DNA from: a virus
Length of the DNA stretch: 19,889 nucleotides
UHGV virus genome: UHGV-0130218
Strand: one strand, 5' to 3'
Below the pieces are notes generated by a model that made no database searches, was not told the origin of the DNA, and saw only the letters and a list, made by a program, of their open reading frames with translations. Shown piece after piece: positions 50 through 19,889 of this stretch (position 1 is its first letter; each line of letters begins with the position of its first letter). The position numbers and the translations under genes are program-made.

Positions 50-349
50 CTACTTCGAAGAAAGGGCAAGTTTGCGCACAGTCGTCAGGAAATTGAATGG
101 GGTTGAATCCCACAACTCAGGTGAAAAATCAAATCCATACCGGCTTTTGAACTCCTCATCCAGCCTGTCTCCGTAAAGCACAAGGAAAGAATCGACCTCT
201 TCGGCTAACTCTTTTAACATCCAGTCGGGAGCTGTTTTTTTATAGAGTTCAACAGTGCCTTCAATAGTATCCTCTCCCTCATTTATGAGGTCATGATCCT
301 GATTGAAATAACCCTGAATCAGCTGATCAAGATGATAGAAACTTTGCAT
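50..349 (-). CDS. Putative immunity protein of the adjacent toxin-like ORF
   Basis: 99-aa ORF that starts 12 nt downstream of the toxin-like ORF on the same strand. Small, acidic (D/E-rich), no catalytic motif, as is typical of immunity partners of nuclease toxins. Family not assignable by eye. Confidence 0.45.
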   Translation of the reverse strand: MQSFYHLDQLIQGYFNQDHDLINEGEDTIEGTVELYKKTAPDWMLKELAEEVDSFLVLYGDRLDEEFKSRYGFDFSPELWDSTPFNFLTTVRKLALSSK

Positions 350-361
350 AATCCACCTGTC

Positions 362-1207
362 CTATGGGGTCGGGAATGCTGTAAGGATATAGTAAGGTTT
401 TCCGTTATACTCTTGCAATTCGATAACAATCCTCACTCCACGCATGCTGATGCGCTGTGTGCTGCCTCGCGTGAATCCATACCCAACCTCCTGACCGGCA
501 GAATAATTGATGGTAAGGCGTCCACCAATTTTACCACCTCCGAGTAACGATTTGATATTTGCCCGGTTAAGATAGACCGCCCTCGAAATAACATTTTCAG
601 CAACATTTAAGTCTTTAAACGTTGAAGACATAACAAGTCGCTTATTTTTCTCGAATCGGGCAAGTAACTCACTGTCAGTTTTTCCGACATGATTTGCGAG
701 TGTATGGCCGCCGGGTTTAAGACCCGTAACTGATTCATGCTGGATCAATTTGATGCGACCAGCTTTAATTGCAGCTACACGGACGGCACCAATAGCAGCT
801 GCAAATCCAAGCGGAACGGCTATATCAACTGTCATGCCGATATTGAGGGCGGTGTCTTCATCGGCACCAAGTTCTCTTGCCGCGCTTACAGCAATTTGCC
901 AGGTGGCTGAGCGCGTATCACGACCGGTTATTAGCTGTCTGGCTGCGCTTTGAACAGCGTCAAGACTATGTGCACCAACAACCACACATCCCGCTTTCGT
1001 TAGTCCTGTTGGTTCTGGCGCGATACATAGTGCCGTGGCACCGGCCATTTCTACCGCTCCGAGTAAAACGCCAAGTCCCCCCAACAGTCGGTTACTCAGC
1101 GTTTCCGCCTCTGTAATGCTTTTATCTGAAAGCACCGCCGCCAGCTGTACCGGTGACATAACAACGACCATTCCACCTTCTTCCATAACAGTATCCCATC
1201 CCTCCAT
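362..1207 (-). CDS. Putative polymorphic-toxin-like protein (Gly/Ala-rich pre-toxin segment ending in TG plus C-terminal nuclease-like domain)
   Basis: 281-aa ORF. N-terminal part has a Gly/Ala-rich hydrophobic segment (LLGGLGVLLGAVEMAGATALCIAPEPTGL...AARQLITG) resembling pre-toxin TG domains. C-terminal ~130 aa carries GGHTLANHVGK (His-x4-His-x2-Lys), reminiscent of EndoU/RNase-type toxin domains. No secretion or delivery domain is present, and the upstream frame closes 17 codons before the ATG. Confidence 0.5.
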   Translation of the reverse strand: MEGWDTVMEEGGMVVVMSPVQLAAVLSDKSITEAETLSNRLLGGLGVLLGAVEMAGATALCIAPEPTGLTKAGCVVVGAHSLDAVQSAARQLITGRDTRSATWQIAVSAARELGADEDTALNIGMTVDIAVPLGFAAAIGAVRVAAIKAGRIKLIQHESVTGLKPGGHTLANHVGKTDSELLARFEKNKRLVMSSTFKDLNVAENVISRAVYLNRANIKSLLGGGKIGGRLTINYSAGQEVGYGFTRGSTQRISMRGVRIVIELQEYNGKPYYILTAFPTP

Positions 1208-1322
1208 ATCCTGACTCGATAATAGCCAAAACTTTCTTCGGTTGATAAGAGTAAATTACTGGCTTTTCTTATTTATTTGAACTCATCATATTCAGCTGAG
1301 ATAAAAAGACGGCTGTTGCTGG

Positions 1323-1348
1323 TTGAGGTTGGTTATGTCGCTGCGGGC
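1323..1348. repeat. Direct repeat copy 2 (partner at 10-35)
   Basis: See copy 1. This copy overlaps the stop codon of the 63-aa ORF ending ...DEPAAT. Confidence 0.7.
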
Positions 1349-1524
1349 TCGTCGCATGTCGGCAGCCAGTCGTCGTAGCTTTCTTCTTTCAGTGACGGGT
1401 TGGTCTGTATCTCCTGCTTTATGTTCCGCTTCTCATGATTCAGGCCGTACTCTTTCAGCATCATGGGCAGCCCCTGCCCGAACATTTTCAGGCTGAGCAC
1501 CTTTCTGTATCCGTTAGCCTTCAT
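1333..1524 (-). CDS. Hypothetical 63-aa protein whose 3' end is duplicated downstream of the immunity ORF
   Basis: ORF with ATG start ending ...SYDDWLPTCDEPAAT. The last ~45 nt are related with indels to the sequence just past the immunity ORF stop, which encodes LQADKPAAT-stop in frame. No recognisable domain. Confidence 0.25.
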   Translation of the reverse strand: MKANGYRKVLSLKMFGQGLPMMLKEYGLNHEKRNIKQEIQTNPSLKEESYDDWLPTCDEPAAT

Positions 1525-1675
1525 ATGCGTATTCCGATGATTCCGGTGTTTTCGATCGCGCTTTTCGCGCTTTCCTGCTGCGCATTCGCGCTCTCGAAAT
1601 GAAGGGGGAGAGCGCGCCGCAGTCCGCGGCCATCGACGAGCTGCCGATGCGCTAAGTCGTCAGGGCAGCTTCGAT

Positions 1676-1819
1676 ATGAATCAGGAGCCGGTATTGTCCG
1701 TGACGGGTATGCACCGGCCGCAGATTACTGACGTTGATACGGAGCTGTTACGCAGCCCTGCGAAGAGGATGATGCTTGCCAGAAAGCTGGCTGAAAATGG
1801 CGAGACAAAAGCGGAGGAG
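1676..1819 (+). pseudogene. Short ORF abutting ogr/delta, possibly the C-terminal remnant of a truncated upstream late gene (sid-like position)
   Basis: 47-codon frame (MNQEPVLSVTGMHRPQITDVDTELLRSPAKRMMLARKLAENGETKAEE) ending 5 nt before the ogr/delta ATG. The frame is closed upstream at 1655-1657. The sid assignment is by position only. Confidence 0.2.
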
Positions 1820-1824
1820 TAAGC

Positions 1825-2043
1825 ATGTTTCACTGGCCGTTCTGCAAAACCAGCGCGCATTCCCGCACCAGTCGGTATCTGTCCGATAACGTCAAACAGC
1901 GCTATCACCAGTGCATGAACATAGAGTGCTCGGCCACGTTCCGCACGCTTGAATCCATCGACGGGGTTATTCGTTCACCGGCAACAGAGCCGGTCATCCC
2001 TGCACCCGCACCGGCGGCCACCGTTAACCGTGCCGGTGCGTAA
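1825..2043 (+). CDS. ogr: Ogr/Delta-family zinc-finger late-gene transcription activator (P2/P4 type)
   Basis: 72 aa. MFHWPFCKTSAHSRTSRYLSDNVKQRYHQCMNIECSATF matches the Ogr/Delta signature (P2 Ogr as I recall it: MFHCPLC...RTSRY...RYHQCQN.NCSATF). RBS ggagga lies 8 nt upstream. The first Cys ligand position is W (TGG). Confidence 0.85.
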   Translation: MFHWPFCKTSAHSRTSRYLSDNVKQRYHQCMNIECSATFRTLESIDGVIRSPATEPVIPAPAPAATVNRAGA

Positions 2044-2409
2044 GCACGGCCAGTTATCAGGAGAAACATACGTGACCACACTGACGCTACATAAATTATT
2101 CGGCGCAGGATAATGACATTTTAACGGTCATCGGATTCAGGCCTGACGCGGCTTCGCGCGATGATAGTCGTGAAAAATTCACACCCGCACAGAACCTGAA
2201 TTACACACGCCGCCGTGCAGAACTGGCCGTGCAGTAGTCCGCTTAAAAATCCCCGAAAATCCCGCCATTTTTACTTATAAGAGCCATGCATGCATAGGTG
2301 CATGGTTTTGCATGCGTTTTACCGACACTGAATTCCCCGCCAGCGCCAGCACTGGCGCGCTCTGAGGCCGGTCATGCGCCTGCATTAAAAGCGCCCCCTT
2401 AAGCGGGCA

Positions 2410-2428
2410 GGCGTGGCGGGGAGAGCAT
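2410..2428 (+). other. cos-like 19-mer (P2/P4 cohesive-end-like)
   Basis: GGCGTGGCGGGGAGAGCAT matches 16 of 19 positions of the P2/P4 cohesive-end sequence as I recall it (GGCGAGGCGGGGAAAGCAC). It sits where P4 has cos, between the delta/psu late genes and the int-proximal region. Confidence 0.4.
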
Positions 2429-2505
2429 TGCGCGCCAAAAGGCTTGAAAGGAATTCTTCACGGAGGCAATATTAAGATAATATAAACTTAAGTCAGGACG
2501 ATTGT

Positions 2506-2754
2506 ATGTATGATCAGTCTTTCAATCCGCGCACACTCTCACGATGTTTCAAACCTGAGGATTTCCATAAAAATAGAGCATTAAGTCTAGACAGTGTTCG
2601 AGAAAAGACTATTAACTCGGCTATCGAAAGATATAAGGATGGGTTCTTGGGTTATAATTTACGCTCATCCGTTTTAAGAGGGAAAACAGTATATTGGGCC
2701 GATGAGTTAGCTGATGTATTGGTCTTGAGGAAAATTAAAAAAAAATTTATCTAA
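2506..2754 (+). CDS. Reverse transcriptase, N-terminal (fingers) segment; frame ends inside an A9 tract
   Basis: ATG with RBS agga 8 nt upstream. 82 codons encoding ...GYNLRSSVLRGKTVYWADELADVLVLRKIKKK, consistent with RT motifs 1/2. Stops at 2752-2754, just after the A9 run at 2737-2745. Confidence 0.6.
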   Translation: MYDQSFNPRTLSRCFKPEDFHKNRALSLDSVREKTINSAIERYKDGFLGYNLRSSVLRGKTVYWADELADVLVLRKIKKKFI

Positions 2755-2845
2755 GCTATATCAATTAAGATTACCTTCTCGAACAAAGATTGTTGATACA
2801 TTAAAGGTTTTTTTATCAGAGTGTTCACAGTATAAAATATACAGA

Positions 2846-3769
2846 TTGGATATATTTTCATTTTATGAATCTTTCGATAAAAACTATATATTTAATAAAA
2901 TAGATGGATTGGAGCGGTTAGAGCTTAAAACAAAGCAGGTTCTAAAGGAATTTCTTTATTCATTCTATCTGAATGGTGGGCAAGGAATACCAAGAGGATT
3001 GTCAATCAGTGCATACTTGGCAGAGTTACTAATGTATGATTTCGATAATCAAGTGAAAGATAACCACTCTGTTTTTTATTATGCTAGGTATGTAGATGAT
3101 ATAGTTATTGTCACTAGTGGTTACGAAGATAGTGATGCTTTTATTGAGAATGTAAAATCAAACCTTCCAAATGGATTGCGTTTTAATGAAGGGAAGAAAT
3201 ATTATATTAGCGATTTAATTCCAAAATCTTCCAAAAAAACAAACCGTGCACCCTCCAAAAAATTGTTATCCTTTGAATATTTAGGGTACGATTTTAGCGT
3301 GGGAGATAAAATTGAAGAGTGCAATATAAGAGGATTCTATAGGGTAATTGAAATTGATCTTGCACATGCAAAGGCTAATAAAGTAAAAAGTAGAGTGATT
3401 TATTCGATTGTTGATTTTAATAAAACCAATGATTTTGAGTTGCTATGTGAAAGACTAAAATTCCTGTCCACAAACTTTAGTGTTTTAGATTCAGATAGAG
3501 TATTAAAACGGTTGTCGGGCATTCATTTTAATTATCCTCTTATTGATGCTAAATCTTCTAAGCGCCTTGCTGAACTTGATGTGTTTTTAAGAAAGGCTGT
3601 ATTATCATCTAGTGGTAAGGTTTTCTTTGATTTTCATGCGAACTTAAACCAATGCAAAAAATATCGATTACTTAAGATTAGTTTTGTTAGAGGCCATGAG
3701 AAACGTCATTTTTTTCATTATTCAGCTTCAAAAATGATGAAAATTCAAAGGTGTTGGAAATATGTCTAA
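2846..3769 (+). CDS. Reverse transcriptase, palm/thumb segment (the frame is open from 2729, so it is likely continuous with 2506-2754 after a +1 shift)
   Basis: RT motif A YRLDIFSFYESFDKNYIF, motif B QGIPRGLSISAYLAELLMYDFD, motif C YYARYVDDIVIV, motif D/E LRFNEGKKYYIS. No ATG or GTG precedes these motifs in this frame; the ORF track uses TTG at 2846. AT-rich. Confidence 0.8.
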   Translation: MDIFSFYESFDKNYIFNKIDGLERLELKTKQVLKEFLYSFYLNGGQGIPRGLSISAYLAELLMYDFDNQVKDNHSVFYYARYVDDIVIVTSGYEDSDAFIENVKSNLPNGLRFNEGKKYYISDLIPKSSKKTNRAPSKKLLSFEYLGYDFSVGDKIEECNIRGFYRVIEIDLAHAKANKVKSRVIYSIVDFNKTNDFELLCERLKFLSTNFSVLDSDRVLKRLSGIHFNYPLIDAKSSKRLAELDVFLRKAVLSSSGKVFFDFHANLNQCKKYRLLKISFVRGHEKRHFFHYSASKMMKIQRCWKYV

Positions 3770-5714
3770 AAAAAAGGAAGTAAGAGTTAATAAAAAAGAT
3801 TTTAATAGGGTTTTAGTTACTGAAACCATACCCTATGAAACGCCTATAATAGTGTCCAATGATGGTTTTTATAACAATGTAGTTAAATATACAACGGCCA
3901 ATGATACTGCTAAGGTATTGATTCAAAGAATAATTCTAGGGGAAAAGAAGAAAGGTAGGTATACGATTCCCTATGTTTTTAAAATTAATAAAAATGAGAC
4001 GGAGTTTCGACGTTTAGCCTTTCCACACCCCATATCTCAGATTGAAATGCGGGATTTTTATCTCCATTTTAATCAAATGATGATCAATTTTTGTTCCCGT
4101 AGTGATTTTTCTATTCGGCGACCGGTGAAGGTTGCAAGTACATATTATTATAAGAACTTATTGGAAGACAAGAATTTATATAAGAGAGGGCCTGTTGATA
4201 CCGACAAAAATGAACTATTAACTCGGCATGCTTCTTCATATTTTGGCTATCACGGATATGATCGCCTGTATAAGTTCTTTATGTCTAATGAGTTTATTGA
4301 CCTTGAGCGTAAATATAATACGCTATATACATTAGATGTTTCAAAATGTTTCGACAGTATCTATACTCATTCAATTTCTTGGGCTGCAAAAACCAAGACT
4401 TTCATTAAAGGGATGTTAGCTAATAAATCATTAAACTTTGGTGATGCTTTTGATAAATTAATGCAACGTTGCAACTTTAACGAAACCCATGGTGTAATTA
4501 TCGGTCCAGAAATTAGTCGAATATTCGCTGAGGTTATATTTCAAAAAATAGATTTAAATGTTCAGTTTAAATTAAATAATATCGAGCCATCGATACGTAA
4601 GGGTATCGATTATGATATTCGCCGTTATGTTGATGATGTTTTTATTTTTGCTAAAAATGAAACTAATGCCGAAATTATATATAAGATTTACACTGATAAA
4701 CTGAATGAATATAACATGCATATAAATTTGGGTAAAGTAACAAAAAACACTCGACCTTTTATCACAGCAAAAACGCAAATTATACATCACGTCAATCAAA
4801 GAATGAATTTATTTATTGAATCTTTTCTTGGTTATGATGATGAAATGAAATTAATCGCAAAGCCAATATATAACAATAGGAAGTTAGCTAACAAATTTAT
4901 AGATGAGGTGAAAATAATATGTGCTGAAAATAATGCGGGATATGGTGAGGTTGCTTCTTATATTGTGTCGGCGATTTTTGAAAGAATTAAAAGATTAACT
5001 TCTTCAGTTAATCAAGTCGAAGATAAAGATATATACAATGCAATGTATGTTTTGCTCCATATTTCATTGTTCTTTTTCAGAGTTGCTCCGTCTGTTAGTT
5101 CATCATATAAATTGGCTTCAATACTTATCGTGGCTCTCAGATATTTTAAGGCTAAAGTACCATCATACAGTGAGCTTATAGCATCATATGTTTATTTTGA
5201 AATTGAAGACTTTCTTAAATCTGCTAATACTAGCAAAGTAGCCATAGATAATCTAATTAGTCTTGAGGCATATAATATTATGTATGTTATAGGTGAGCTA
5301 GATCAAGAACGATATTTATCAAAACAGTTGATTGAGAACATTTTTAGTGAAGTTGATTCTTATTTTGATATAGTGTCCTGTCTATATATCGTAAAGGATA
5401 AGAAAGTTTATAATACACTTAAAAATAAAATTATTGATATTATTAACTCCAAGTTAATGTCAAGTGATAGTATTTTGGATTATAGTGAAAAGGCAATGCT
5501 CTTTTTGGATGTTATGTCTTGCCCTTATATTGATTTAAAATGGAAAAAAATATGGTTGAAATCAACTTTAAAAGAATTGCAAGAAGCTACTCCTAACAAT
5601 GAAAAAATAGATAGTTTTATCAGTTATTCTGTAGCGAATCCTTGGTTTGTGGACTGGAGTAATGTCGATCTTTTGAATTTCTTAGAAAAAAAACAATTGA
5701 AAAAAGCCTATTGA
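3762..5714 (+). CDS. Reverse transcriptase with long alpha-helical C-terminal extension (UG/Abi-type, defence-associated RT-like)
   Basis: 650 aa. Motif A YTLDVSKCFDSIYTHSI, motif B HGVIIGPEISRIFAEVIF, motif C RRYVDDVFIFAKN, followed by ~300 aa of predicted helical sequence. Its ATG overlaps the upstream RT stop by 8 nt, indicating translational coupling. AT-rich. Confidence 0.85.
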   Translation: MSKKKEVRVNKKDFNRVLVTETIPYETPIIVSNDGFYNNVVKYTTANDTAKVLIQRIILGEKKKGRYTIPYVFKINKNETEFRRLAFPHPISQIEMRDFYLHFNQMMINFCSRSDFSIRRPVKVASTYYYKNLLEDKNLYKRGPVDTDKNELLTRHASSYFGYHGYDRLYKFFMSNEFIDLERKYNTLYTLDVSKCFDSIYTHSISWAAKTKTFIKGMLANKSLNFGDAFDKLMQRCNFNETHGVIIGPEISRIFAEVIFQKIDLNVQFKLNNIEPSIRKGIDYDIRRYVDDVFIFAKNETNAEIIYKIYTDKLNEYNMHINLGKVTKNTRPFITAKTQIIHHVNQRMNLFIESFLGYDDEMKLIAKPIYNNRKLANKFIDEVKIICAENNAGYGEVASYIVSAIFERIKRLTSSVNQVEDKDIYNAMYVLLHISLFFFRVAPSVSSSYKLASILIVALRYFKAKVPSYSELIASYVYFEIEDFLKSANTSKVAIDNLISLEAYNIMYVIGELDQERYLSKQLIENIFSEVDSYFDIVSCLYIVKDKKVYNTLKNKIIDIINSKLMSSDSILDYSEKAMLFLDVMSCPYIDLKWKKIWLKSTLKELQEATPNNEKIDSFISYSVANPWFVDWSNVDLLNFLEKKQLKKAY

Positions 5715-5880
5715 ATTGCTAATTTGTTGTTGAAGCAACCAATATGCCCTACACGATTTTTCGATATACTAGGGCTGATTACGGTAGGTAAGTTGCATGT
5801 AACCTGGCCTACCTTATGACGCTCAAGAGCAGAAATGCACACACTAAGGGATGAGGTTGCTTCAACCCCTTTTATTTTCT
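5715..5880 (+). ncRNA. Candidate structured non-coding RNA downstream of the RT operon
   Basis: 5729-5740 GTTGAAGCAACC and 5855-5866 GGTTGCTTCAAC are perfect reverse complements (12 bp), enclosing ~115 nt with internal stems such as 5784-5789 GGTAGG / 5808-5813 CCTACC. A T-rich tail follows. No ORF. Confidence 0.35.
5848..5880 (+). terminator. Putative intrinsic terminator for the RT operon
   Basis: Stem GGTTG-CTT-CAACC at 5855-5867 followed by CCTTTTATTTTCT. The int stop codon (5862-5864 on the minus strand) lies in the loop. Confidence 0.4.
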
Positions 5881-7058
5881 ACAAAATTCCCCCACCACAG
5901 CATCAGCTCTACTCTTTGTTGCAAATAGACAGAGCGGTTGTATGCTCTTCGTACCTCATTCTTATCAGAATGAGCTAGTGCTGCTTCAATGACGTCTGGA
6001 TTAAATCCTTCTTCATTAAGCGTCGTGCTAGCTATCGAGCGTAAGCCATGAGCAACTAGCTTCCCATTCCAGCCAACTCTTTTTAGTGCAGCATTAGCCG
6101 TCTGGCTATTCATAGCTTTCTTAGGGTCATTTCTACTTGGAAAAACATGATCACGGTGCTTACTGATGGGTGCCATGATCTCAAGAATATAAAGCGCCTG
6201 AGGAGATAGAGGAATTAAATGTTCACGCTTCGCTTTCATCCTTTCGGCGGGGATTGTCCAGAGTTTTGAGTCGAGATCGATCTCTTCCCACCTGGTACCG
6301 GAGGCTTCAGAAGGGCGTACAAGGGTTAGGAGTTGCCACTCAATTAGACAGCGAGTAGGAACAGACAGATTTGACATAACCAAAGAACGCATCAGACTTG
6401 GTAATTCTTCTGGTCTAAGCGTAGGCATATTTTGCTTTTTAGGCCTCTCAAAAGCCATTCCAACTCCTGAGGTTGGGTTTGCGTCAATCAAGCCGGTATT
6501 TACCGCGTAAATCATAATCTCATTAATACGCTGTACCAGACGACGAACAGTCTCCAGAGCACCACGCGCTTTGATTGGCTCTAATGCTTCAACAATTGTT
6601 CTGGCCTTAATCTCCTGAACAGGTATCGTGCCTATTGCAGGGAAAACGTCCTTGTCTAAAGATCGCCAAATATCTTTTGCATAGTCTTCGGTGACGCTTT
6701 TGCTCTTCATTTTGAACCAGTTGGTGGCCACAGTTGAGAAAATGCTATCCAGCTCTATCTGACGCTTTTCTGATGCATGCTCTTGTTGCTGTTGTGGATC
6801 CATATCTAGCGCGAGCATGGTTAAGTGCTGGTCGCGTATCTGACGAGCTGCTGCGAGTGTAAAGGCAGGGTATGAGCCGAGACTCAAATTTGTGCGGCTG
6901 CTGCTTCCCGGTCGTTGATAACGGAAGCGCCAGAGTTTTTTGCCGGAGGTTTTTACGAGTAAGAACAGGCCATCACCATCATGCAGGGTGAAGTCTTTTT
7001 CGCGGGGTTTTGCTTTGAGGATTTCGTTGTTAGTGAGGGGGCGTGTAATGCGCGCCAT
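5862..7058 (-). CDS. int: P4-type tyrosine integrase
   Basis: 398 aa. N-terminus LTNNEILKAKPREKDFTLHDGDGLFLLVKTSGKKLWRFRYQRPG is typical of P4-family integrase arm-binding domains. The C-terminal catalytic region has HGLRS...LAHSDKNEVRRAYNRSVYL (R, H-x-x-R, Y). RBS aggga upstream. It is adjacent to a tmRNA 3' fragment, as with CP4-57 intA. Confidence 0.9.
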   Translation of the reverse strand: MARITRPLTNNEILKAKPREKDFTLHDGDGLFLLVKTSGKKLWRFRYQRPGSSSRTNLSLGSYPAFTLAAARQIRDQHLTMLALDMDPQQQQEHASEKRQIELDSIFSTVATNWFKMKSKSVTEDYAKDIWRSLDKDVFPAIGTIPVQEIKARTIVEALEPIKARGALETVRRLVQRINEIMIYAVNTGLIDANPTSGVGMAFERPKKQNMPTLRPEELPSLMRSLVMSNLSVPTRCLIEWQLLTLVRPSEASGTRWEEIDLDSKLWTIPAERMKAKREHLIPLSPQALYILEIMAPISKHRDHVFPSRNDPKKAMNSQTANAALKRVGWNGKLVAHGLRSIASTTLNEEGFNPDVIEAALAHSDKNEVRRAYNRSVYLQQRVELMLWWGNFVENKRG

Positions 7059-7210: not shown

Positions 7211-7262
7211 GGACTTCATCGGATGACTCTGGTAATCACCGATGGAACATTTTGGTGGAGCT

Positions 7263-7300
7263 GGCGGGAGTTGAACCCGCATCCGTAACCAGCTATCTCA
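7263..7300 (-). other. ssrA: tmRNA (ssrA) 3'-terminal fragment serving as att core (not a complete gene)
   Basis: Reverse complement of 7263-7290 is GCGGGTTCAACTCCCGCCAGCTCCACCA, which matches the T-arm, acceptor 3' strand and CCA end of enterobacterial tmRNA. Sequence beyond 7300 is AT-rich coding DNA with no tag-peptide region. Confidence 0.7.
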
Positions 7301-7311
7301 TTGAAAAATAA

Positions 7312-8172
7312 TCAAATAAATTTGTTTTTCCATGTCTCGTATCTTTTACGTATCCTTTGAAGTAGTAATGCCGTCCAGCTAAGGCCGTGAGAGAATGTTA
7401 GATTAAAAGTTGCTTCCACTGTATCTCCACGTATTGAGAATCTATTTATCCGATATTCAGTAGAAAAAAACTCTTTTTTTGTTGTTCCAGAGATTTCTTC
7501 ATATTCAATTAATAAAACAGGCCCATCTATTTGAGTTAACATATTTTCATGGAGGCTGATTTTATCCAAGAGGTAGTTAGATAATAGTGTCGGTATTAAT
7601 GTGGGGATGTGAAGATTTACCTCTTCTTTGTTAACGCTCCAAGGGAGAATATAAACAACATCAGAATATTGTTCTTCATGAGAATACCATTTGGATTGAC
7701 CAAAACCTAATAATGAAATGTAAGTGTGACCTTGTTTGTCTAATTGATAACAGTATTCATTAGCCATCATGGCTGCTTTGTAACCTTTGGTGTCAAAGGT
7801 ATGTTCATCGTCTAGTTTTTTTATTTTATTTAACAAAAAATGTTTTTCGTAATTGAATATCCATTGGTATTTGAATTTCAACGCTGGGCCTAGACCAACA
7901 TTTAATATTGGCAGGGTGGGATTGTTGTTTTTTGATATAGCATCAAAAACACCTTTGTTTACTATTTTTGTTTTATCAATTTTTATTTTTACATCTTTAG
8001 TGATTATCTGTACTTTGTTTGATAACTTTCTTTGGATAACAGTTTGCCTTATAGCTAAATAAGCAGCAATTGCTGATAAAGCACTTGCTGTCAAACCACC
8101 ATATCCGAGCCATGCGGGGTCTGCCATATCGAAGTATTCCTGCCTTATAACAAGGCAGGAATTATTTCTCAA
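7312..8172 (-). CDS. Hypothetical membrane-anchored protein; AT-rich moron between the lambdoid int and the att core
   Basis: 286-codon ORF with a TTG start; a more likely ATG start at 8127 gives MADPAWLGYGGLTASALSAIAAYLAI, a predicted N-terminal transmembrane helix. The ~240-aa soluble domain has no motif I recognise. Strongly AT-rich compared with the neighbouring int. Confidence 0.6.
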   Translation of the reverse strand: MRNNSCLVIRQEYFDMADPAWLGYGGLTASALSAIAAYLAIRQTVIQRKLSNKVQIITKDVKIKIDKTKIVNKGVFDAISKNNNPTLPILNVGLGPALKFKYQWIFNYEKHFLLNKIKKLDDEHTFDTKGYKAAMMANEYCYQLDKQGHTYISLLGFGQSKWYSHEEQYSDVVYILPWSVNKEEVNLHIPTLIPTLLSNYLLDKISLHENMLTQIDGPVLLIEYEEISGTTKKEFFSTEYRINRFSIRGDTVEATFNLTFSHGLSWTALLLQRIRKRYETWKNKFI

Positions 8173-9344
8173 TTCTTCACATTGTTCAAGGATGTGATCG
8201 ATGAGTTGTTATCATAATCTTTCAAATAGCGTCCGTAATGACGAAAGAGCATCTCAGGTCCTTTGTGGCCCATCTGCGCAGCCAGCCAAAATAAGTTTAC
8301 ACCGCAGCTTATCATACGTGTGGCGAATGTATGCCTTGTCTGATAAGGATTACGGTACCTGATACCGGCTTTCCGGAGCGTAGGAACCCAGGCTTTTTTC
8401 CTAATGGCGTCCGCGCTGGCCCATGGCTTGTTTGTCTTCGGATCTTCAAAGACACAACCATTCTTCATGAAGCTAAAGGGCTTTTGTTCGTTTAGAGCAA
8501 TCATCGCTTCCTCGGTTAACTCAACCTTGCGTGTTCCTGCCTTCGTTTTCGTACCTTTCGTCACGCCAGAGACGCTGGCGCTCTGTACATGAGCCGTCTT
8601 CTCAACGAAGTCAATGTCCCTCCAGCGTAGTGCGCAAAGTTCCGAACTGCGTAGACCTGTCTGAAGCGCAAATCTGAATAAGTTCTCCCATTGCTTATTA
8701 CCCGCTGATTTTAACAGCGCGCTTACCTCTGCTGGAGATAGTGGATCAACAATATAAGTACTTTCCTCGTCACTTTTTTTGCTTTGATATCGTGAAGCTG
8801 TTACCTGTGACACTGGATTAATTTGTAAAACACCATCAGTTACAGCTTCATCAAGTGAGGAACGAAGAAACGACAACTGGTTACGTATCGTCTTCAATGT
8901 TGTTTTCTGATTCTGAATCCATGTTTTTAATGCTGCTGGCGTTAACTCACTGGCCGGGAAAATGTGAAGTTCAGACAGTGCGCTACGGCATTTTTTATAC
9001 CCGCCAATGGTGGAGGGGGAAAGATTCCTCGTTTCGCAAATCTTCAGGTACTCATCAAGATACATTTTCACTGTTTTCCCGGTCGCAGCATTACCGAAAA
9101 TTTTTAACCTCACCGAACGAGGGAAATATTCAGCATAGATAAATGTTCCACGCTCGATTTTGTTGTGGATTTCGCCGAGCATACGCTCGGCATATTTAAG
9201 GTTTTTGTTGTTCACTTCTAGATTTGAAAGGGGTTCTCTGCATTTCACCCCCTTGTATGTGAACGTAATATTGATGGTTTCACCACTGCTGTGCTTCCTG
9301 ATGGTTACACCACGTGGGAGTTTAGGCGATTCTTTCGTGCCCAT
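8169..9344 (-). CDS. int: Phage tyrosine integrase (lambdoid type)
   Basis: 391 aa. C-terminal catalytic region RNPYQTRHTFATRMISCGVNLFWLAAQMGHKGPEMLFRHYGRYL (R...H-x-x-R...Y). Its start overlaps the xis-like ORF. Confidence 0.9.
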   Translation of the reverse strand: MGTKESPKLPRGVTIRKHSSGETINITFTYKGVKCREPLSNLEVNNKNLKYAERMLGEIHNKIERGTFIYAEYFPRSVRLKIFGNAATGKTVKMYLDEYLKICETRNLSPSTIGGYKKCRSALSELHIFPASELTPAALKTWIQNQKTTLKTIRNQLSFLRSSLDEAVTDGVLQINPVSQVTASRYQSKKSDEESTYIVDPLSPAEVSALLKSAGNKQWENLFRFALQTGLRSSELCALRWRDIDFVEKTAHVQSASVSGVTKGTKTKAGTRKVELTEEAMIALNEQKPFSFMKNGCVFEDPKTNKPWASADAIRKKAWVPTLRKAGIRYRNPYQTRHTFATRMISCGVNLFWLAAQMGHKGPEMLFRHYGRYLKDYDNNSSITSLNNVKN

Positions 9345-9523
9345 TTTGCAACCTCACTAAGATCTATCCATCTCTCCTTAACGCCTTCAACCTTAAGCAC
9401 CTGCACCCCTTCACGCCAAACGCCGCGCTGTACACGCTTATTGATCGCATCTGGGGTTTCGCCAGTCTCTTTGCAATAAGTTGAGATGGGAACACAATCG
9501 AGGCTCAGCATATACTTCTCCAT
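9305..9523 (-). CDS. xis: Excisionase-like small DNA-binding protein
   Basis: 72 aa, basic. Overlaps the int start by 40 nt, the classic xis-int arrangement. Confidence 0.6.
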   Translation of the reverse strand: MEKYMLSLDCVPISTYCKETGETPDAINKRVQRGVWREGVQVLKVEGVKERWIDLSEVAKWARKNRLNSHVV

Positions 9524-9545
9524 TAACTCGGCTGCACCCGAGTAA

Positions 9546-10118
9546 TTAAAACTTGTCGCTGTTGGTAGGGATCAGTTTCTGCCAAATTGCTGACAAATAT
9601 TTTGCCTGGTGTCGCGCATCAGCTAGGGCATTGTGCACATCGCCAATAAAAGGCATGTCACGCTTCGGATCGAAACCGACACTGCGACCAAGCGTAACAA
9701 TAGTGCGCACATCGTGATCGTTCCAAAAGCCCCAAGGGCATATGCGGCCGGCGCGTTCGTAAGCTCCACGCAGAATCACATTGTCAAAGGTGGCACCGTT
9801 ACCCCAGACCTTCATGTATTTTGGATTATCTGCGTGCCGGTGAATGAAATGGCTCAGTTCCGACAGTGCATCAGTGATAGGCAGCGCATCATCAACACAA
9901 ATAGCTGAGCGCGCTTCCGAGCTTTGTTTGAGCCACCAAAGAATAGTATCTCCGTCCGGTACCGCACCCTGATCCATTGCGCTTTCAAGCGAGATGGCCG
10001 TATAGAATTCTTGACCAAGTTCACCTGTATGAGGGTTAAAAAAGACGGCACCAATTGACACGATCGGCGCGTTTGGCTTTTTTCCCATCGATTCGAGGTC
10101 AATCATTAAGTCGTTCAA
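9546..10118 (-). CDS. DnaQ-like (DEDDh) 3'-5' exonuclease
   Basis: 190 aa. N-terminal Exo I motif MIDLESMG, and a C-terminal His/Asp motif HNALADARHQ. Confidence 0.65.
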   Translation of the reverse strand: MNDLMIDLESMGKKPNAPIVSIGAVFFNPHTGELGQEFYTAISLESAMDQGAVPDGDTILWWLKQSSEARSAICVDDALPITDALSELSHFIHRHADNPKYMKVWGNGATFDNVILRGAYERAGRICPWGFWNDHDVRTIVTLGRSVGFDPKRDMPFIGDVHNALADARHQAKYLSAIWQKLIPTNSDKF

Positions 10119-10402
10119 TTGCTTTCTCCATTGTTCTTGGCTTCTGATTCACTGTGGGGGCTGTAGCGCGAGTCGGCGTTGTCGCTAACGTGGCAATAAT
10201 GAGCCCCGTCAGGACGAGTACAAATTGTCCCGCACCTATCACATGCCAATATTGCTTCCAGCTCCGCGATCCGCTCCTCTGCTTTTGACAACTGCTCGAG
10301 AAGTTCTTCTGCTAACGTCACACGCATCACGACTTTCTGACAGTCGTGGCGCTTGGCTCTGGCGATTGTGCCGCGCAGACTCGCATAATTGTTGGGGGTC
10401 AT
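10115..10402 (-). CDS. Hypothetical phage early protein (Cys-containing, coiled-coil)
   Basis: 95-aa ORF overlapping its downstream neighbour by 4 nt, indicating an operon. No assignable domain. Confidence 0.5.
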   Translation of the reverse strand: MTPNNYASLRGTIARAKRHDCQKVVMRVTLAEELLEQLSKAEERIAELEAILACDRCGTICTRPDGAHYCHVSDNADSRYSPHSESEAKNNGESN

Positions 10403-10596
10403 TGGACGGACTCCTGACGAAGATGGTTAATTTCGGCGTCAAGGCTCATTCGCTGGTCCATCGATTCCGTCAAGGCGGCAAATGTAACGTCCAGGCGAGT
10501 GGCTACCTCACGCATCAGAGAAGCTTCTGCTGGTGACAGTTTCTCCGCCGCAGCATGGGCTGCGGCTACCAGTTCTTTTATCTTCATGCGAGGCAT
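10399..10596 (-). CDS. Hypothetical small phage early protein
   Basis: 65-aa ORF in the same operon, overlapping both neighbours. Helical, charged. Confidence 0.45.
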   Translation of the reverse strand: MPRMKIKELVAAAHAAAEKLSPAEASLMREVATRLDVTFAALTESMDQRMSLDAEINHLRQESVQ

Positions 10597-11123
10597 GCGC
10601 GTGATTCCGTAAGCTCATTGAAACGGTTAATGAACAAGCCATATGCTTGGCCTGGACGAAGAGGGACGATCTGGATAATGTCGCTGGCCGGTATACCTTC
10701 AAGACAAGGCCAGAGTGAGCCGTCGTCGATATCCAGATCGCGGCGTTCAGTGGCAAGCATCACCAGATCGGCGTATTTCACTACCGCTGACATATCAGGG
10801 GTGATGCTGAATTTGGCCCGGATCAGCTGTTCTACCCGCTCTTCAATGCGACGATAATCTGGAAGCAATGCCTTTAGGGGGGCAGGTATGTCTTGGCAAT
10901 AGGCTTCAGCTGCATCATGCATCAGGGCTTCAAAGGCAAACTCTGGCGGCACAATTTGGCTGCACAGTACCGAGTGCTGGGCCACGCTGTAAAATTCCGG
11001 CAGATGACCACTGAAGCGGCAGATGTGGGAAAGTGCGGTCGCAATATCCTCGAGCTCTACATCGTCAGCGGTTGAATTAAGGTAATTGAATTTCTTACCT
11101 GAAAGTGTCTGGATATAACTCAT
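10584..11123 (-). CDS. HD-domain phosphohydrolase (YfdR-like prophage protein)
   Basis: 179 aa. HD signature ...SVAQHSVLCS...ALMHDAAEAY. Size and neighbourhood match the CPS-53 yfdP-yfdQ-yfdR arrangement. Confidence 0.75.
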   Translation of the reverse strand: MSYIQTLSGKKFNYLNSTADDVELEDIATALSHICRFSGHLPEFYSVAQHSVLCSQIVPPEFAFEALMHDAAEAYCQDIPAPLKALLPDYRRIEERVEQLIRAKFSITPDMSAVVKYADLVMLATERRDLDIDDGSLWPCLEGIPASDIIQIVPLRPGQAYGLFINRFNELTESRACLA

Positions 11124-11257
11124 CGTCTTTTCTTCTCCATATTTGGCAGCTGCACCTGCGCTAGTTTTGGTTGTACGAATCCCTCGCCTTTGGCGATTAA
11201 TAAAGGGAATTGCGCTTCAATAAATCCCCGCGGCGCCGGGGATTTAATGCAGAGAAA

Positions 11258-12088
11258 TTACGCTTTAAAGTTACCGATAAAGGTTTCTACTGGCTCGCCG
11301 TCGAATTTGCTGATTAGCAGATCTCGGAATTCATTGGCGATCGCTTCTTCCTGCGCTTCCAGCTGAACAATACGCAGAACAAAGCGTGGTTCGTCACCTG
11401 TGAGTAGACTATTGCGAAGGCTGAATGCTCGCTCACCAAGACCTTCATACGGCACGCATTTGAACTCGAACGCTACCGGCATTACATCTTTGCTGCTGGC
11501 CTCAACGCTCTGCATTAGTGATTTTTTCCCGCTGAAATCACCGTCTTCATGATCCTGCTGAGTCGCCTGCTGGATAGTGATGCGACGAACAGCCTGAGCA
11601 GCCTGTGAAATCTGCATGGTATTTCCTTCAGCATCAAAGGCCAGCAGGTAATCACTCCAGTCTTCCAGCCATTCGGCGATCTGCTTTTGCTTCAGTCGGT
11701 CACCGTTAATCGCCAGCAGCGCGCGGAAAGGTGCAGTCTGTTTCAGGGTGATTGCAGCAACGTTATCAGCATGGCCTGGGTTTTCCAGCGTGCCGATATT
11801 GAACACGGAGCGTGCTGTCATATTGTCCGCATCGATAAAGCAGCGAGCCGGCTCTTCGACACTGGCATACCCTTTAGAATAACGGGCGAAATCATTGATG
11901 CTGGTCGTGGTCATGGCGCCACGGAAGCGGAAGCGCTCCAGTGAAAAATTTTCCAGGCTCGCTACCTTTGTATTTTCCGGCAAAATAGCTGTTGGACAGG
12001 CGAGTCCGTTAATATCATTCAGGTGATAGCCGGAGAGAACCAGGTCTTTAACCTGTTTGATGGCGCTGCTGTCTAGTTGCTGAGACAT
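11258..12088 (-). CDS. YfdQ-like prophage protein (DUF2303-type)
   Basis: 276 aa. Called from size and position between the YfdP-like and YfdR-like genes. No catalytic motif recognised. Confidence 0.6.
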   Translation of the reverse strand: MSQQLDSSAIKQVKDLVLSGYHLNDINGLACPTAILPENTKVASLENFSLERFRFRGAMTTTSINDFARYSKGYASVEEPARCFIDADNMTARSVFNIGTLENPGHADNVAAITLKQTAPFRALLAINGDRLKQKQIAEWLEDWSDYLLAFDAEGNTMQISQAAQAVRRITIQQATQQDHEDGDFSGKKSLMQSVEASSKDVMPVAFEFKCVPYEGLGERAFSLRNSLLTGDEPRFVLRIVQLEAQEEAIANEFRDLLISKFDGEPVETFIGNFKA

Positions 12089-12144
12089 AAAAATTCCTTA
12101 TCTGCTAATGATCGAAGTGGTTGCAGTGAATTGGTTGAGGCGGT

Positions 12145-12516
12145 TCACTGAGCCGCTTTAAGCTTTCCGTCAACGCCGCCGTTGATGCCGAACAACTGTC
12201 CCTGATCTTCTTGGAGGATGGTCAGCTTGCCGCCTTTGTTAACCCACATTGGTGTTTCGGTGGTGTCTTCTTCGGAGGCTTTACCGCGCGGGGTAGGGGT
12301 TACGTAGTTCAGCTTGTGCTTGATCTTGACGCGCTTCTCTTCGACGGAGTTACCCATACGCTCAATATCAAAGGTGAGGACTACTTTGCCTTTGGTACCG
12401 TTGTTCAGAACGCCAAGCGCGGTAGTGTTTAAAGCTGCCGCGATCTTGTTCATGAACACGCCGGCATCCAGTTCGCCCAGGAAATCGGGCACTACGGTCA
12501 TGCGGTCATTACTCAT
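12145..12516 (-). CDS. YfdP-like prophage protein
   Basis: 123 aa, first sizeable ORF of the leftward early operon. Assignment is by synteny and size only. Confidence 0.5.
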   Translation of the reverse strand: MSNDRMTVVPDFLGELDAGVFMNKIAAALNTTALGVLNNGTKGKVVLTFDIERMGNSVEEKRVKIKHKLNYVTPTPRGKASEEDTTETPMWVNKGGKLTILQEDQGQLFGINGGVDGKLKAAQ

Positions 12517-13267
12517 GGTTTAACCCTCTGTGAGGCGGCTGCCACCGCCAGTGGAACTTCTCCATACACAACAGAAAAGGGCACCTGCGTAGCAGTGAAG
12601 ATTGCAGCCTCCATTTCTGCGCCCGGGTGGATTGGGGAATGAGCCCGTCGCCCGGTGATGCCCTTGTCTCTTGTGTAAAAAAGGTGCCCACCGATGTGAT
12701 GGGCAAAGACTACTCACAGCAATGATTTTGTTGTGGCGGTGGTGCCTCCACCTGCCGGACCGGCCAGAACCGGCGACGCTACACCTCAAGAAACGTATTC
12801 ATTTCAAATGTTGAAATAAAAACTTGTTGGCCTCGTCACGTGCGCAGAGCCGCATTACCACAACTGGAAGCGCACTCCGCCAGGTAACAAACCGATCCCC
12901 ATCAGTAAGAAGAGGAGTGCGCTTTCATGTTGTGTTGTGTTGGTCGGTGCTGATCTCCGGCTTTCGGGATGGTTTTGCCATTGCCCCGCGCGGGTTAATA
13001 GTCCGCTGCACATCAGCCTGTGCATTCACCACAACGGTGAGGGCACTGTTTATCTGCTTTACCGATTCGCGTCTCACGCAGTCCGATAATCAGCAATGCT
13101 CTCGCCTGTTGTGCCCTTAAAAAGCTGGCTGTCACCCTCAAGGGGAAAGTGAGCAGCCAGAACAGGGATCACTTCTTATTGCTTTGGCCTGCTTTTAACC
13201 ACATCAGGCGCGGTGGTTCTGCTTAACAACCGCGAAAGTAATAGTGGGTACCAATCGCGTGATTTAA

Positions 13268-13319
13268 ATGTACCTTTAGTTACTTTTTCGGTCAAGCGAG
13301 GAATGTACTTTTTGTTACC
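13268..13319. promoter_or_regulatory. OL-like operator region (two copies of the ATGTACYTTTWGTTAC motif)
   Basis: 13268-13283 atgtacctttagttac and 13303-13318 atgtactttttgttac, immediately 3' of the repressor gene. The same motif recurs at 14078-14093 in the cI-cro intergenic region. Confidence 0.45.
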
Positions 13320-13371
13320 ATGAGGGATAAAAAAAATGCCAGATGAGCATCCGGCATTAGAAATGAATAAC

Positions 13372-14031
13372 TTAAATATTCTGGGTTATCTGAACAACTT
13401 TACCGACAATCCGGCAATTTCCATCTATCGGTATAGGTTTGAAGGCAGGATTAAGCGGCATCAGATACGCGAAAGGGCTATCCCAGACGAGTTTTTTCAC
13501 TGTTGCTTCAGCAGAGCCATCAAGTATCGCCACGACTATTTTCCCGTAAAGGTCATCCAGTTGGCCATAGTGTGGTTCAACTATTACGATCGACCCTTCG
13601 GGTATGGATGGTAGACCATGTGGGTTAGTCATCGATTCCCCACGAACAACCAGGCCGAATACTTCATCAGAAACGTTTGCAGTGGTTTGCGTCCATGAAA
13701 TCACATCAGAAAGCCTTGAGCATGCGTAAGTATCAGTCCACGTCCCTGCCTGGACAGCAGAGATAATTGGAACTGCCTTAGGGGGCTTGAGAAAGGGGAT
13801 CACTTTGGTGTCATCCTGCGCTTCATCTCCTTTCCCGTAGAGAATCCATTCAGGCGTGGTTTGCAACGCCATCGCCAGCTGATGGAGGTTCTCACCATCA
13901 GGCTTCGTGTTACCGCTCTCCCATTTAGTAACGGACACGCGGCTAACACCTAGGCGTTTAGCTAGGGTCTGCTGCGTTATATCGAGCTGGACTCGACGGG
14001 ATCTTATTCGGTCTTTCATCTCTGTTTTCAT
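13372..14031 (-). CDS. cI: CI-type phage repressor (HTH plus S24 LexA-like peptidase domain)
   Basis: 219 aa. N-terminal HTH QQTLAKRLGVSRVSVTKWESG. C-terminal GESM (Ser nucleophile) and ATVKKL (Lys) motifs. Divergent from the cro-like gene. Confidence 0.85.
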   Translation of the reverse strand: MKTEMKDRIRSRRVQLDITQQTLAKRLGVSRVSVTKWESGNTKPDGENLHQLAMALQTTPEWILYGKGDEAQDDTKVIPFLKPPKAVPIISAVQAGTWTDTYACSRLSDVISWTQTTANVSDEVFGLVVRGESMTNPHGLPSIPEGSIVIVEPHYGQLDDLYGKIVVAILDGSAEATVKKLVWDSPFAYLMPLNPAFKPIPIDGNCRIVGKVVQITQNI

Positions 14032-14094
14032 GTAACCAATGTTACATTGATTCCTTGTAACTGTTGTTTGCTATTTGATGTACCTTTTGTTACC
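14032..14094. promoter_or_regulatory. OR-like operator region between cI and cro
   Basis: Inverted half-sites TGTAAC-N4-GTTACA at 14031-14046, gtaactgttg at 14055-14064, and atgtaccttttgttac at 14078-14093. RBS aggagg at 14113-14118 precedes cro. Confidence 0.45.
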
Positions 14095-14123
14095 TTTAAG
14101 GCGTGAGTTAACTAGGAGGAGCC

Positions 14124-14312
14124 ATGCGTAAATCACAAGTTATTGAGCACTTTGGCGGAGTATCAAAAACCGCCAGTGTTCTTGGGATCTCCCATCCGGC
14201 TGTTTGCCGATGGGGAGAGGTTATTCCTCAGAAGCAAGCGTTCGTTATCGAACGAATTACTGAAGGCAAGCTTAAGTACGACGCCAGCCTTTATCAGAAG
14301 CCTACAGATTAG
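14124..14312 (+). CDS. cro: Cro-type small HTH repressor
   Basis: 62 aa. VIEHFGGVSKTASVLGISHPAVCRWGEVIPQKQAFVIERITEGKLKY resembles P22-type Cro as I recall it. Divergent from cI, with a strong RBS. Confidence 0.8.
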   Translation: MRKSQVIEHFGGVSKTASVLGISHPAVCRWGEVIPQKQAFVIERITEGKLKYDASLYQKPTD

Positions 14313-14349
14313 GCATCTGGGAAGAAACCACAGATATAAGGGGTTAGCC

Positions 14350-14898
14350 GTGGGTATAGAACCTGAATGGAAAGTAGATAAGCAGCCAGCCTGGCTGGTG
14401 GCCGCAATCAAAAAAACGATAACCGAGCTTCCTGGCGGGTATTCCGAAGCAGCTGAGTGGTTGGGTGTGACCGAGAACGCGCTGTTTAACCGGCTGCGTA
14501 CCGATGGTGATCAGATCTTCCCGCTCGGTTGGGCGATGGTGCTTCAGCGTGCTGGTGGTTCAAACCACATAGCGAACGCTATTGCACGTCACTCGAACGG
14601 TGTGTTTGTGCCATTGGCTGATGTTGAAAAGATTGAGAACGGCGATATCAACCAGCGTCTCATGGAGTCAGTTGAGTGGATCGGCAGGCATTCGCAATAC
14701 GTTCGTAAAGCTACCGCTGACGGCGTTATTGATGCTCAGGAACGCGCCCAGATCGAAGAGAACAGCTATCAGGTGATGGCTAAGTGGCAGGAACATTTGA
14801 CGCTGCTTTTCCGTGTGTTTTGCGCGCCGGAAAAGAGTGACGCCCGCGAGTGTGCAGCTCCGGGCGTCGTGGCAGACAAATCTTGTATGGAGAAGTAA
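14350..14898 (+). CDS. CII-like / YdaT-like regulatory protein (start probably GTG at 14350, not the longer 14143 frame)
   Basis: The long ORF-track frame from 14143 would overlap cro. GTG at 14350 is preceded by aagggg 8 nt upstream. Position after cro and size (~183 aa) fit CII-like regulators of lambdoid prophages. Family call is tentative. Confidence 0.5.
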   Translation: MGIEPEWKVDKQPAWLVAAIKKTITELPGGYSEAAEWLGVTENALFNRLRTDGDQIFPLGWAMVLQRAGGSNHIANAIARHSNGVFVPLADVEKIENGDINQRLMESVEWIGRHSQYVRKATADGVIDAQERAQIEENSYQVMAKWQEHLTLLFRVFCAPEKSDARECAAPGVVADKSCMEK

Positions 14899-15070
14899 TC
14901 CGCATGACCAGTTTAACGGCTTTTAACCGTTTACCGCAACTCAGGATGATCCCGGTACCGGGCGCTCCGTTGTTTCGGTATGAACGCAGAATAGCAAACC
15001 GCTGGGTGCCATGTAACCACAGTCGGGCGGTCGCAATTGTGGGGGTTTACTACAGGAAGGCGAAACGCTT

Positions 15071-15250
15071 ATGCGCGAAGTTAACCGAAGGTTCAAAGAC
15101 CACAGAGGGATCCCCGTTCGGGTTATCCGGTGGGAGCCAGAGACTCAACGAGTTATCTACCTGCGGGATGGTTATAACCACGAATGTTTCAGCCCGCTCG
15201 AACAATTTAAGCGCAAGTTTACAGAGTTAAAGGACGACCATGAGCACTAA
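15071..15250 (+). CDS. Small conserved phage protein (59 aa), below the ORF-track size cutoff
   Basis: ATG at 15071 with GAAGG upstream. Encodes MREVNRRFKDHRGIPVRVIRWEPETQRVIYLRDGYNHECFSPLEQFKRKFTELKDDHEH, a balanced protein-like composition. It overlaps the next gene start and lies fully inside the low-complexity 14850-15230 frame. Confidence 0.4.
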   Translation: MREVNRRFKDHRGIPVRVIRWEPETQRVIYLRDGYNHECFSPLEQFKRKFTELKDDHEH

Positions 15251-18929: not shown

Positions 18930-18943
18930 TATGGAGAAATAGC

Positions 18944-19636: not shown

Positions 19637-19889
19637 GAGGACTGTTTACAGCCGAGACTGTTCCGCGCCTTGGGCTTGTGCTGTTAAAGCCGGGTAGCGA
19701 ACTGATGTCTTTGTTTCAACAGGGGCGTGTGCTGGTGGAGCCTCAGCCAAAAAGTATGGCTGGGCTTCCGTCGGGGCTCGTCCCTGATGCCAGGCAGCCG
19801 CTGGCAGAAGATAAGTCGCTCGAGGAATTCTTCACCGACGAGAGAGTAATCCGTGCAGCAGGCGGTTTGACCGCGTGGGAACCCTGGTT
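19633..19889 (+). CDS. Hypothetical protein, 5' partial ORF running off the window end
   Basis: Open frame from GTG at 19633 (overlapping the upstream stop as GTGA) to the end of the window without a stop. No recognisable domain. Confidence 0.3.
   Translation, partial: MRGLFTAETVPRLGLVLLKPGSELMSLFQQGRVLVEPQPKSMAGLPSGLVPDARQPLAEDKSLEEFFTDERVIRAAGGLTAWEPW

Follow-up and report, generated by a model that had tools for sequence, protein, structure and literature searches.

The 72-residue open reading frame (ORF) at 1825..2043 on the plus strand of viral genome UHGV-0130218 (19,889 nt, here called the window) encodes an Ogr/Delta-family protein, and on sequence grounds it probably represents a non-functional delta relic, inactivated by a missense mutation and located in an immobilised P4-like satellite at the ssrA gene of an Enterobacter hormaechei / E. 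cloacae-complex lineage. The initial annotation had described a decaying satellite, and this description is supported by our homologue alignment, by population data and by the wrecked state of the alpha, sid and psu genes.

Zinc site and spread of the Trp allele

We aligned the window ORF with the experimentally studied P2 Ogr (NC_001895, 24036..24254) and P4 Delta (NC_001609, 10314..10814), and with the Delta proteins of intact satellites. The translation begins MFHWPFCKTSAHSRTSRYLSDNVKQRYHQCMNIECSATF, reading MFHWPFC, and the full 72-residue product is MFHWPFCKTSAHSRTSRYLSDNVKQRYHQCMNIECSATFRTLESIDGVIRSPATEPVIPAPAPAATVNRAGA. It matches the Pfam family Ogr_Delta (PF04606) with 64.5 bits, well above the family cutoff of 26.3, with the alignment opening at residue 5 (profile position 3), directly after the tryptophan. 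The corresponding Cys4 allele (P0003) scores 70.1 bits and aligns from profile position 1, leaving the window allele 5.6 bits lower; P2 Ogr scores 76.9 bits. The window protein has the same length as P2 Ogr (72 residues), shares 48% identity with it and has the same MFH-x-P-x-C start and the same x22 and x4 spacings. It is a single-domain protein like Ogr, whereas P4 Delta comprises two repeats in 166 residues.

The four-Cys zinc site of the Ogr/Delta family conforms to CX2CX22CX4C (PMC3931495). In the window protein the motif instead reads W4-x2-C7-x22-C30-x4-C35. Cys-7, Cys-30 and Cys-35 are its only cysteines, and a compensating cysteine is absent. These three residues are invariant among P2 Ogr, both P4 Delta repeats and the intact satellite Deltas, and position 4 is a cysteine everywhere except for the tryptophan in the window. 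Codon 4 (1834..1836, plus strand) is TGG, compared with TGT or TGC in intact relatives and in the related remnant L016. The alignment thus upholds the earlier claims that Trp occupies the first zinc-ligand position and that the three remaining cysteines are intact, and it places the first ligand at residue 4, with no other Cys supplying it. The proposed single-nucleotide change (TGY to TGG) likewise holds, the P0003 protein differing only at residue 4. Cysteine substitutions in Ogr and in the 186 B protein abolish function. As Trp cannot coordinate zinc, the N-terminal zinc knuckle should not form in the window protein, judging from conservation and the four-Cys motif, and DNA binding and activation should be lost without it. 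His-3 and His-12 are located near the zinc site and are conserved; both are found in Cys4 proteins too. A search of solved structures returned no Ogr/Delta structure, the best PDB match being a NrdR zinc ribbon with a marginal E-value of 0.16.

Because only a single base is involved, the TGG codon could in principle reflect a sequencing or assembly error in this record. The chance of this is negligible: independent projects have contributed at least 375 contigs (601 index blocks) with the exact 72-residue W4 protein, many of them complete Enterobacter chromosomes, and therefore TGG is not a base-call error. The same base is present in nine sister loci and in the divergent remnant L018, which together with the independent contigs secures the base call on which the initial annotation relied. 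The source records annotate the W4 protein as an ogr/Delta-like zinc finger protein of E. hormaechei subsp. xiangfangensis or the E. cloacae complex. The first 7.25-7.29 kb of the window are 99.8-99.97% identical across the nine sister chromosomes, with delta being invariant.

We next consider position 4 in the wider family. Among 134 homologue-cluster sequences it is Cys in 117, a gap in 10 truncated copies, Trp in four, Tyr in one (P0025) and another residue in each of the remaining two, which are copies with a scrambled N-terminus. The four Trp sequences include the query, the window allele (P0001) and a divergent relative (P0016). P0003, a common E. hormaechei allele, occurs in 932 index blocks and differs from the window protein solely by its Cys4. 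It is part of complete satellites in four of the six places that we read; the fifth (L017) is without a called alpha, and the sixth is the remnant L016. In GTDB species-representative genomes, a search with the codon-4 context and any third base gave two exact matches, both TGT, and the W4 allele with this exact flank was not found there.

Loss of replicase, regulators, promoter and late genes

We compared the window with intact relatives from E. coli (L001, L002) and Enterobacter (L012-L015). On their minus strand, these encode alpha (777 residues), DUF5375, a 75-residue ORF, an Ash/Icd-like gene and an AlpA-type helix-turn-helix (HTH) protein. Their plus strand carries genes for a Sid-like protein (247 residues), Delta (72 residues) and Psu (187 residues), then a variable hotspot and the integrase, followed by a tRNA or ssrA. 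The window retains a C-terminal stub of the alpha primase-helicase on the minus strand (homology 1303..1529; ORF 1333..1524, 63 codons), which covers positions 35-86 of the 86 in Pox_D5 and 738-801 of the 802 in the DNA primase profile phrog_2249. In blastn comparisons with L002 and L012, whose alpha 3' ends it matches, the stub represents the last ~64 codons of the 777-codon gene, the remainder of which is deleted. The blastn coordinates against L001, L002 and L012 place the junction of a ~4.5 kb deletion, equivalent to 1479..6001 in L002, at 1530..1563. Lost with it are alpha codons 1 to ~713, DUF5375, the 75-residue ORF, the Ash/Icd-like gene, the AlpA-type HTH gene, the Psid-type promoter, the intergenic control region and ~159 codons of sid, its 5' two-thirds. 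Consequently, the alpha primase is reduced to its stub in the window, and alpA and an epsilon/ash-type gene are missing, since L001, L002 and L012 carry alpA and the Ash/Icd-like gene in the stretch that is lost here. A single deletion removed the replicase, the regulators, the promoter and most of sid, and stranded delta by taking its native promoter, its cis target and its partner genes.

Two features are found on the alpha side of this junction. At the distal edge of the alpha-homologous segment, ~20 bp past the stop of the stub ORF, a 13-bp indel (1303..1315, AAAAAGACGGCTG) is polymorphic among otherwise near-identical strains, the 13 bp being missing in L003 and L007. Directly downstream of the alpha stub lies a toxin-immunity pair, formed by a stand-alone 281-residue protein (50..1207, minus strand) with a CdiA-CT RNase A-type toxin domain (PF18431, E=4e-33) and a following CdiI_2 immunity protein (PF18593, E=4e-21); a CdiA body or CdiB is absent nearby. 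The pair may be satellite cargo from a variable region beyond alpha, or an orphan module.

On the other side, nucleotide alignment to L002 identifies a 3' remnant of the sid-like late gene (1564..1822, plus strand, ~86 codons), in which 1 bp has been lost near 1644/1645, shifting the frame, and 9 bp near 1668, leaving the frame unchanged. The ORF at 1676..1822 (48 codons), which starts at an internal Met, is the last in-frame piece of sid. It covers profile positions 192-238 of 242 in phrog_6165 and aligns to the C-termini of P4 Sid and of the 247-residue Sid-like proteins. The upstream gene had been described as a truncated, 47-codon C-terminal remnant of a late gene; the truncation is confirmed, but the remnant is longer (~86 codons) and frameshifted.

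Ogr/Delta-dependent late promoters have the form TGT-N12-ACA. A dyad of this form, TGTGCCAGAACTGYCACA, is located ~90 bp upstream of the sid start in all five intact relatives checked (L001, L002, L012, L013 and L015), in each case within the segment that is deleted from the window. We did not find a TGT-N12-ACA dyad in window 1207..6531, and delta therefore is left without its native promoter and cis target while its ribosome-binding site is kept. A consensus scan, which read-through or weak promoters could escape, detected no sigma70-like site on the plus strand between 1200 and 1825. More than 600 assemblies contain the delta ORF itself in full length, with GGAGGAG in front of it as a good Shine-Dalgarno sequence.

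We assessed constraint on delta against a consensus of nine reference loci with full-length sid-delta, all of which except L017 have a called alpha. The window delta differs from this consensus by one replacement (C4W) and two synonymous changes. Within 1587..1708 the sid remnant differs by 14 synonymous and 8 non-synonymous changes, three of the latter located at the junction. We rejected the idea that selection has kept delta unusually conserved relative to the sid remnant, the excess divergence of sid being mostly synonymous. The divergence points to a divergent allele acquired while sid was functional, rather than to faster neutral decay. The cluster of mostly synonymous differences at 1587..1708 separates the window from all intact references used, and 1709..2094 are almost identical to them, which suggests an older mosaic junction within sid. 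The flanking wreckage has accumulated ~3-4 indel events per kb, and at this rate a 219-bp ORF without indels is unremarkable. Together these comparisons appear to provide evidence neither for nor against selection on delta.

The intact ORF with its strong ribosome-binding site, present in hundreds of genomes, could indicate that the W4 protein is still partly active, with a three-Cys site folding with the help of His-3, His-12 or water, and with the protein, expressed by read-through, trans-activating late promoters of a P2-like phage or a co-resident satellite. The rest of the protein is the same as in the common, functional-looking allele, the two conserved histidines adjoin the site, and sister strains such as L011 harbour P2/186-like prophages at this locus. 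We consider residual activity improbable, however: His-3 and His-12 are equally present in Cys4 proteins and hence do not represent a compensation, Cys4 is near-invariant, the native promoter has been deleted with no promoter-like site upstream on the plus strand, and the escape of so short an ORF from indels is expected at the local indel rate. An inactive relic thus remains our preferred reading of the W4 protein.

The psu gene was previously regarded as missing. We found instead that it is present with an internal deletion, as seen by blastn overlap with L001 and L002 and by three-frame translation against L015 Psu. In this remnant (2073..2237, plus strand), the first eight codons (2073..2096, starting with GTG at 2073) and the last 48 codons (2091..2234, stop codon 2235..2237) meet at 2091..2095 in different reading frames, with ~393 bp gone internally. 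P4 backbone continues downstream of psu (2251..2428, plus strand), as concluded from alignment to the joined ends of P4 NC_001609 and from a terminator scan, which locates a terminator-like hairpin at 2289..2304. At 2410..2428, the P2/P4 cohesive end is matched in 16 of 19 bases by a cos-like site, GGCGTGGCGGGGAGAGCAT, whose flank (2380..2409) aligns to P4 at ~85%. A cos component is hence present between psu and the hotspot, as a predicted site.

Cargo, borders and order of events

Two reverse transcriptase genes of a DRT type 3 (DRT3) defence system follow the cos-like site. A possible packaging signal, sitting between the psu remnant and DRT3, is thus still linked to the cargo in a remnant that is unable to replicate. 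The first gene, drt3a (2506..3769, plus strand), is frameshifted in the window: a run of nine A at 2737..2745 replaces the eight A of intact copies, as seen in our table of differences and in the sequence context, and splits the gene into ORFs at 2506..2754 (82 residues) and 2846..3769 (307 residues). Intact drt3a encodes 420 residues (PADLOC Drt3a, E=3.3e-144 for the L003 copy) and is present in six of the nine sister loci. The second gene, drt3b (3762..5714, plus strand), is full length with 650 residues, of which 4-650 align with positions 2-651 of the 651-position PADLOC Drt3b profile (E=1.7e-223). With drt3a broken, the window does not hold a DRT3 system in which both reverse transcriptases are intact.

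Downstream of drt3b lies a full-length P4-type tyrosine integrase of 398 residues (5862..7058, minus strand), as defined by Pfam, phrog_1 and an alignment with six satellite integrases. Its VRPSE, HGLRS, LAHSD and RRAY motifs are conserved, and it contains Arm-DNA-bind_3, Phage_int_M and Phage_integrase domains. Of the earlier statement that defence cargo and integrase remain intact, the part on drt3b and the integrase stands, and the part on drt3a does not. Homopolymer length changes break DRT3 genes in a minority of near-identical strains. The A9 run in drt3a is shared by the window, L006 and L010; L005 carries a -1 change at 2533, L009 an additional A in the A8 run across the drt3a/drt3b overlap (window 3768..3775), and L006 a -1 change at 5686 in drt3b. 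Either long-read assembly errors or genuine slip-strand switching of the defence system may underlie these variants.

The right attachment border of the satellite is a copy of the ssrA (tmRNA) 3' end (7253..7285, minus strand); the L003 match ends 33 nt inside the tmRNA located at 15428..15791. We did not detect a second ssrA 3'-end copy as a left attachment site with 9-12-mers in L003 and the window. The same result was obtained for the intact L015, and therefore the left-site search is uninformative. Rfam at gathering thresholds gave no matches in the whole window, and ARAGORN found no tRNA or tmRNA in it; the intact ssrA must therefore be located beyond the end of the window. The remainder of the window (7286..19889) is occupied by a second integrated element, a prophage, arranged in tandem at ssrA in this strain. 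It encodes a 391-residue integrase (Arm-DNA-bind_2), an Rv2179c-like exonuclease, DUF2303, an S24/HTH CI-type repressor, a CP76-type CII, a replication protein and a 645-residue C5 cytosine methyltransferase.

Two sister remnants, L016 (E. hormaechei CP135594) and L018 (a Logan contig), allowed us to address the order of events. Both contain an alpha/sid deletion junction identical to that of the window, with a left arm that has diverged by 0.5-1%; their psu genes have kept the full length, with a frameshift after approximately codon 9 and, in L016, an additional in-frame stop. Codon 4 of delta is TGT (Cys) in L016 and TGG (Trp) in L018. As the junction is shared and L016 has kept Cys4, the deletion most simply predates C4W, and the most parsimonious order would place C4W in an ancestor that the window and L018 have in common. 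Three remnant lineages and a single informative site (1836) underlie this order, and site 1923 conflicts with it. The conflict would be resolved if the 3' part of the L018 delta, which shows 9 mismatches in 219 bp compared with ~0.75% elsewhere, had been replaced by recombination.

The missense change would accordingly have hit a delta that was already stranded by the deletion. An alternative scenario is that ligand loss was itself selected, either because an orphan Delta could mis-activate late (lysis) genes of resident P2-like prophages, or because the disabled protein might serve as a dominant-negative decoy for P2-like phages. It is noteworthy for this scenario that the sole amino-acid difference from the consensus hits one of four ligands in 72 residues, a chance of ~5-6% per random replacement, that the allele is very widespread and that independent ligand or N-terminal losses occur in other remnants. 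We nevertheless regard selected loss as quite unlikely. The case was picked because a ligand was hit, which introduces an ascertainment bias; the promoter had most likely gone already, so that there was probably nothing to silence; and vertical transmission of a 7.3-kb block, with 99.8-99.97% identity between strains, explains how widespread the allele is. A relic decaying after the loss of its promoter thus accounts better for the Trp allele. Loss of replication and of packaging as a unit would explain why the element as a whole persists, and a further reason for its retention may be that the host benefits from, or is unaffected by, its cargo (DRT3 and possibly the toxin-immunity pair).

Other degraded deltas were found beside retained cargo. 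The Tyr4 allele (P0025; L019 8001..8297), which has lost its stop codon, is accompanied by a type I restriction-modification system in place of sid, by a split integrase and by the absence of alpha and psu. In Klebsiella (P0050; L021 and L022, 8001..8162), an N-terminally truncated delta adjoins a reverse transcriptase and SLATT_5 cargo, and alpha, sid, psu and integrase were all not called at L021/L022. A degraded delta beside retained cargo is thus recurrent.

We also compared the cargo of the three remnants. L016 and L018 carry a 661-residue HATPase_c_3 protein and a 396-residue integrase (74% DNA identity to that of the window), so that remnants with one alpha/sid junction have different modules, DRT3 with the 398-residue integrase (int398) or HATPase_c_3 with the 396-residue enzyme (int396). 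Divergence between the window and L016 rises from ~1% in delta (1825..2043) to 6.7% to the right of the psu junction (Fisher p ~0.001, 1825..2094 versus 2095..2438). This jump at the psu deletion junction indicates that the cargo-plus-integrase module has an ancestry different from that of the left arm, and makes the locus a candidate for the replacement of a module after the element had become defective. An intact E. coli satellite, GF3-3 (L023), contains the same psu-drt3a-drt3b-int398-ssrA module with 86.6% DNA identity, and the DRT3 module is thus normal satellite cargo. We tentatively envision, as a possibility that we hold to be somewhat less probable than even, that the remnant serves as a landing pad: it has kept the delta-psu-cos backbone and the ssrA border, incoming P4-like satellites could integrate in tandem at ssrA, and recombination in the delta/psu homology could then swap the cargo-plus-integrase module. 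Here, the psu junction at 2091..2095 would be the scar of such an exchange, which would have brought in DRT3 and int398.

Relation to intact and defective P4-like elements

Compared with P4, in which the order is sid-delta-psu followed by cos, the window delta is likewise positioned directly after sid and before psu. The window shares with intact P4-like satellites (L012-L015, L001, L002 and L023) a common alpha ... sid-delta-psu-cos-hotspot-int-att backbone, and the Delta proteins are 96-99% identical. In contrast to these satellites, only two of seven core genes are present as full ORFs in the window, namely the integrase and the delta with its mutation; only fragments are left of alpha, sid and psu, and alpA and the ash/epsilon-type gene are gone. 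P4-like satellites are defined by seven core components, at least five of which are required, and delta is almost never missing from functional elements (PMC8628076). By these standards the window has an integrase, has neither an intact sid nor an intact psu, and contains a delta ORF that is recognised by its HMM although a ligand Cys is lost. It differs from the P2 Ogr, P4 Delta and 186 B activators in that its first ligand is Trp and that the Ogr/Delta-responsive promoter of its operon has been deleted.

Defective P4-like elements have been described in which pseudogenised core genes, most often the primase, are found beside conserved defence genes (PMC13586616, NAR 2026). The window is an instance of this published class and likewise occupies a tRNA/tmRNA site. 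It differs from the reported elements in that a core gene, delta, is lost by a missense change, which is flagged neither by pseudogene finders nor by RefSeq, and in that its own defence gene drt3a is frameshifted, in a minority of strains.

The case is an ordinary one, and it leaves the understanding of Ogr/Delta proteins and of satellites unchanged. What is specific here is that inactivation of delta is invisible to pseudogene calls based on indels or stop codons, and that cargo and integrase were apparently swapped between remnants sharing one junction. RefSeq gives the W4 allele the ordinary name 'ogr/Delta-like zinc finger family protein', and counts of delta-positive satellites can consequently include dead copies, for which the presence of all four cysteines would be a cheap filter. 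The three remnant lineages suggest an order of decay in which the replicase, the regulators and the promoter are deleted first, and in which the orphaned late genes then decay by missense changes and indels, while the integrase and the cos-like site persist, as does the defence system in most strains. The locus also offers a tangible candidate for an exchange of cargo in an element that was defective beforehand. PMC13586616 left open whether such elements still trade defence systems, and if the remnant indeed acts as a landing pad, it would answer this question.
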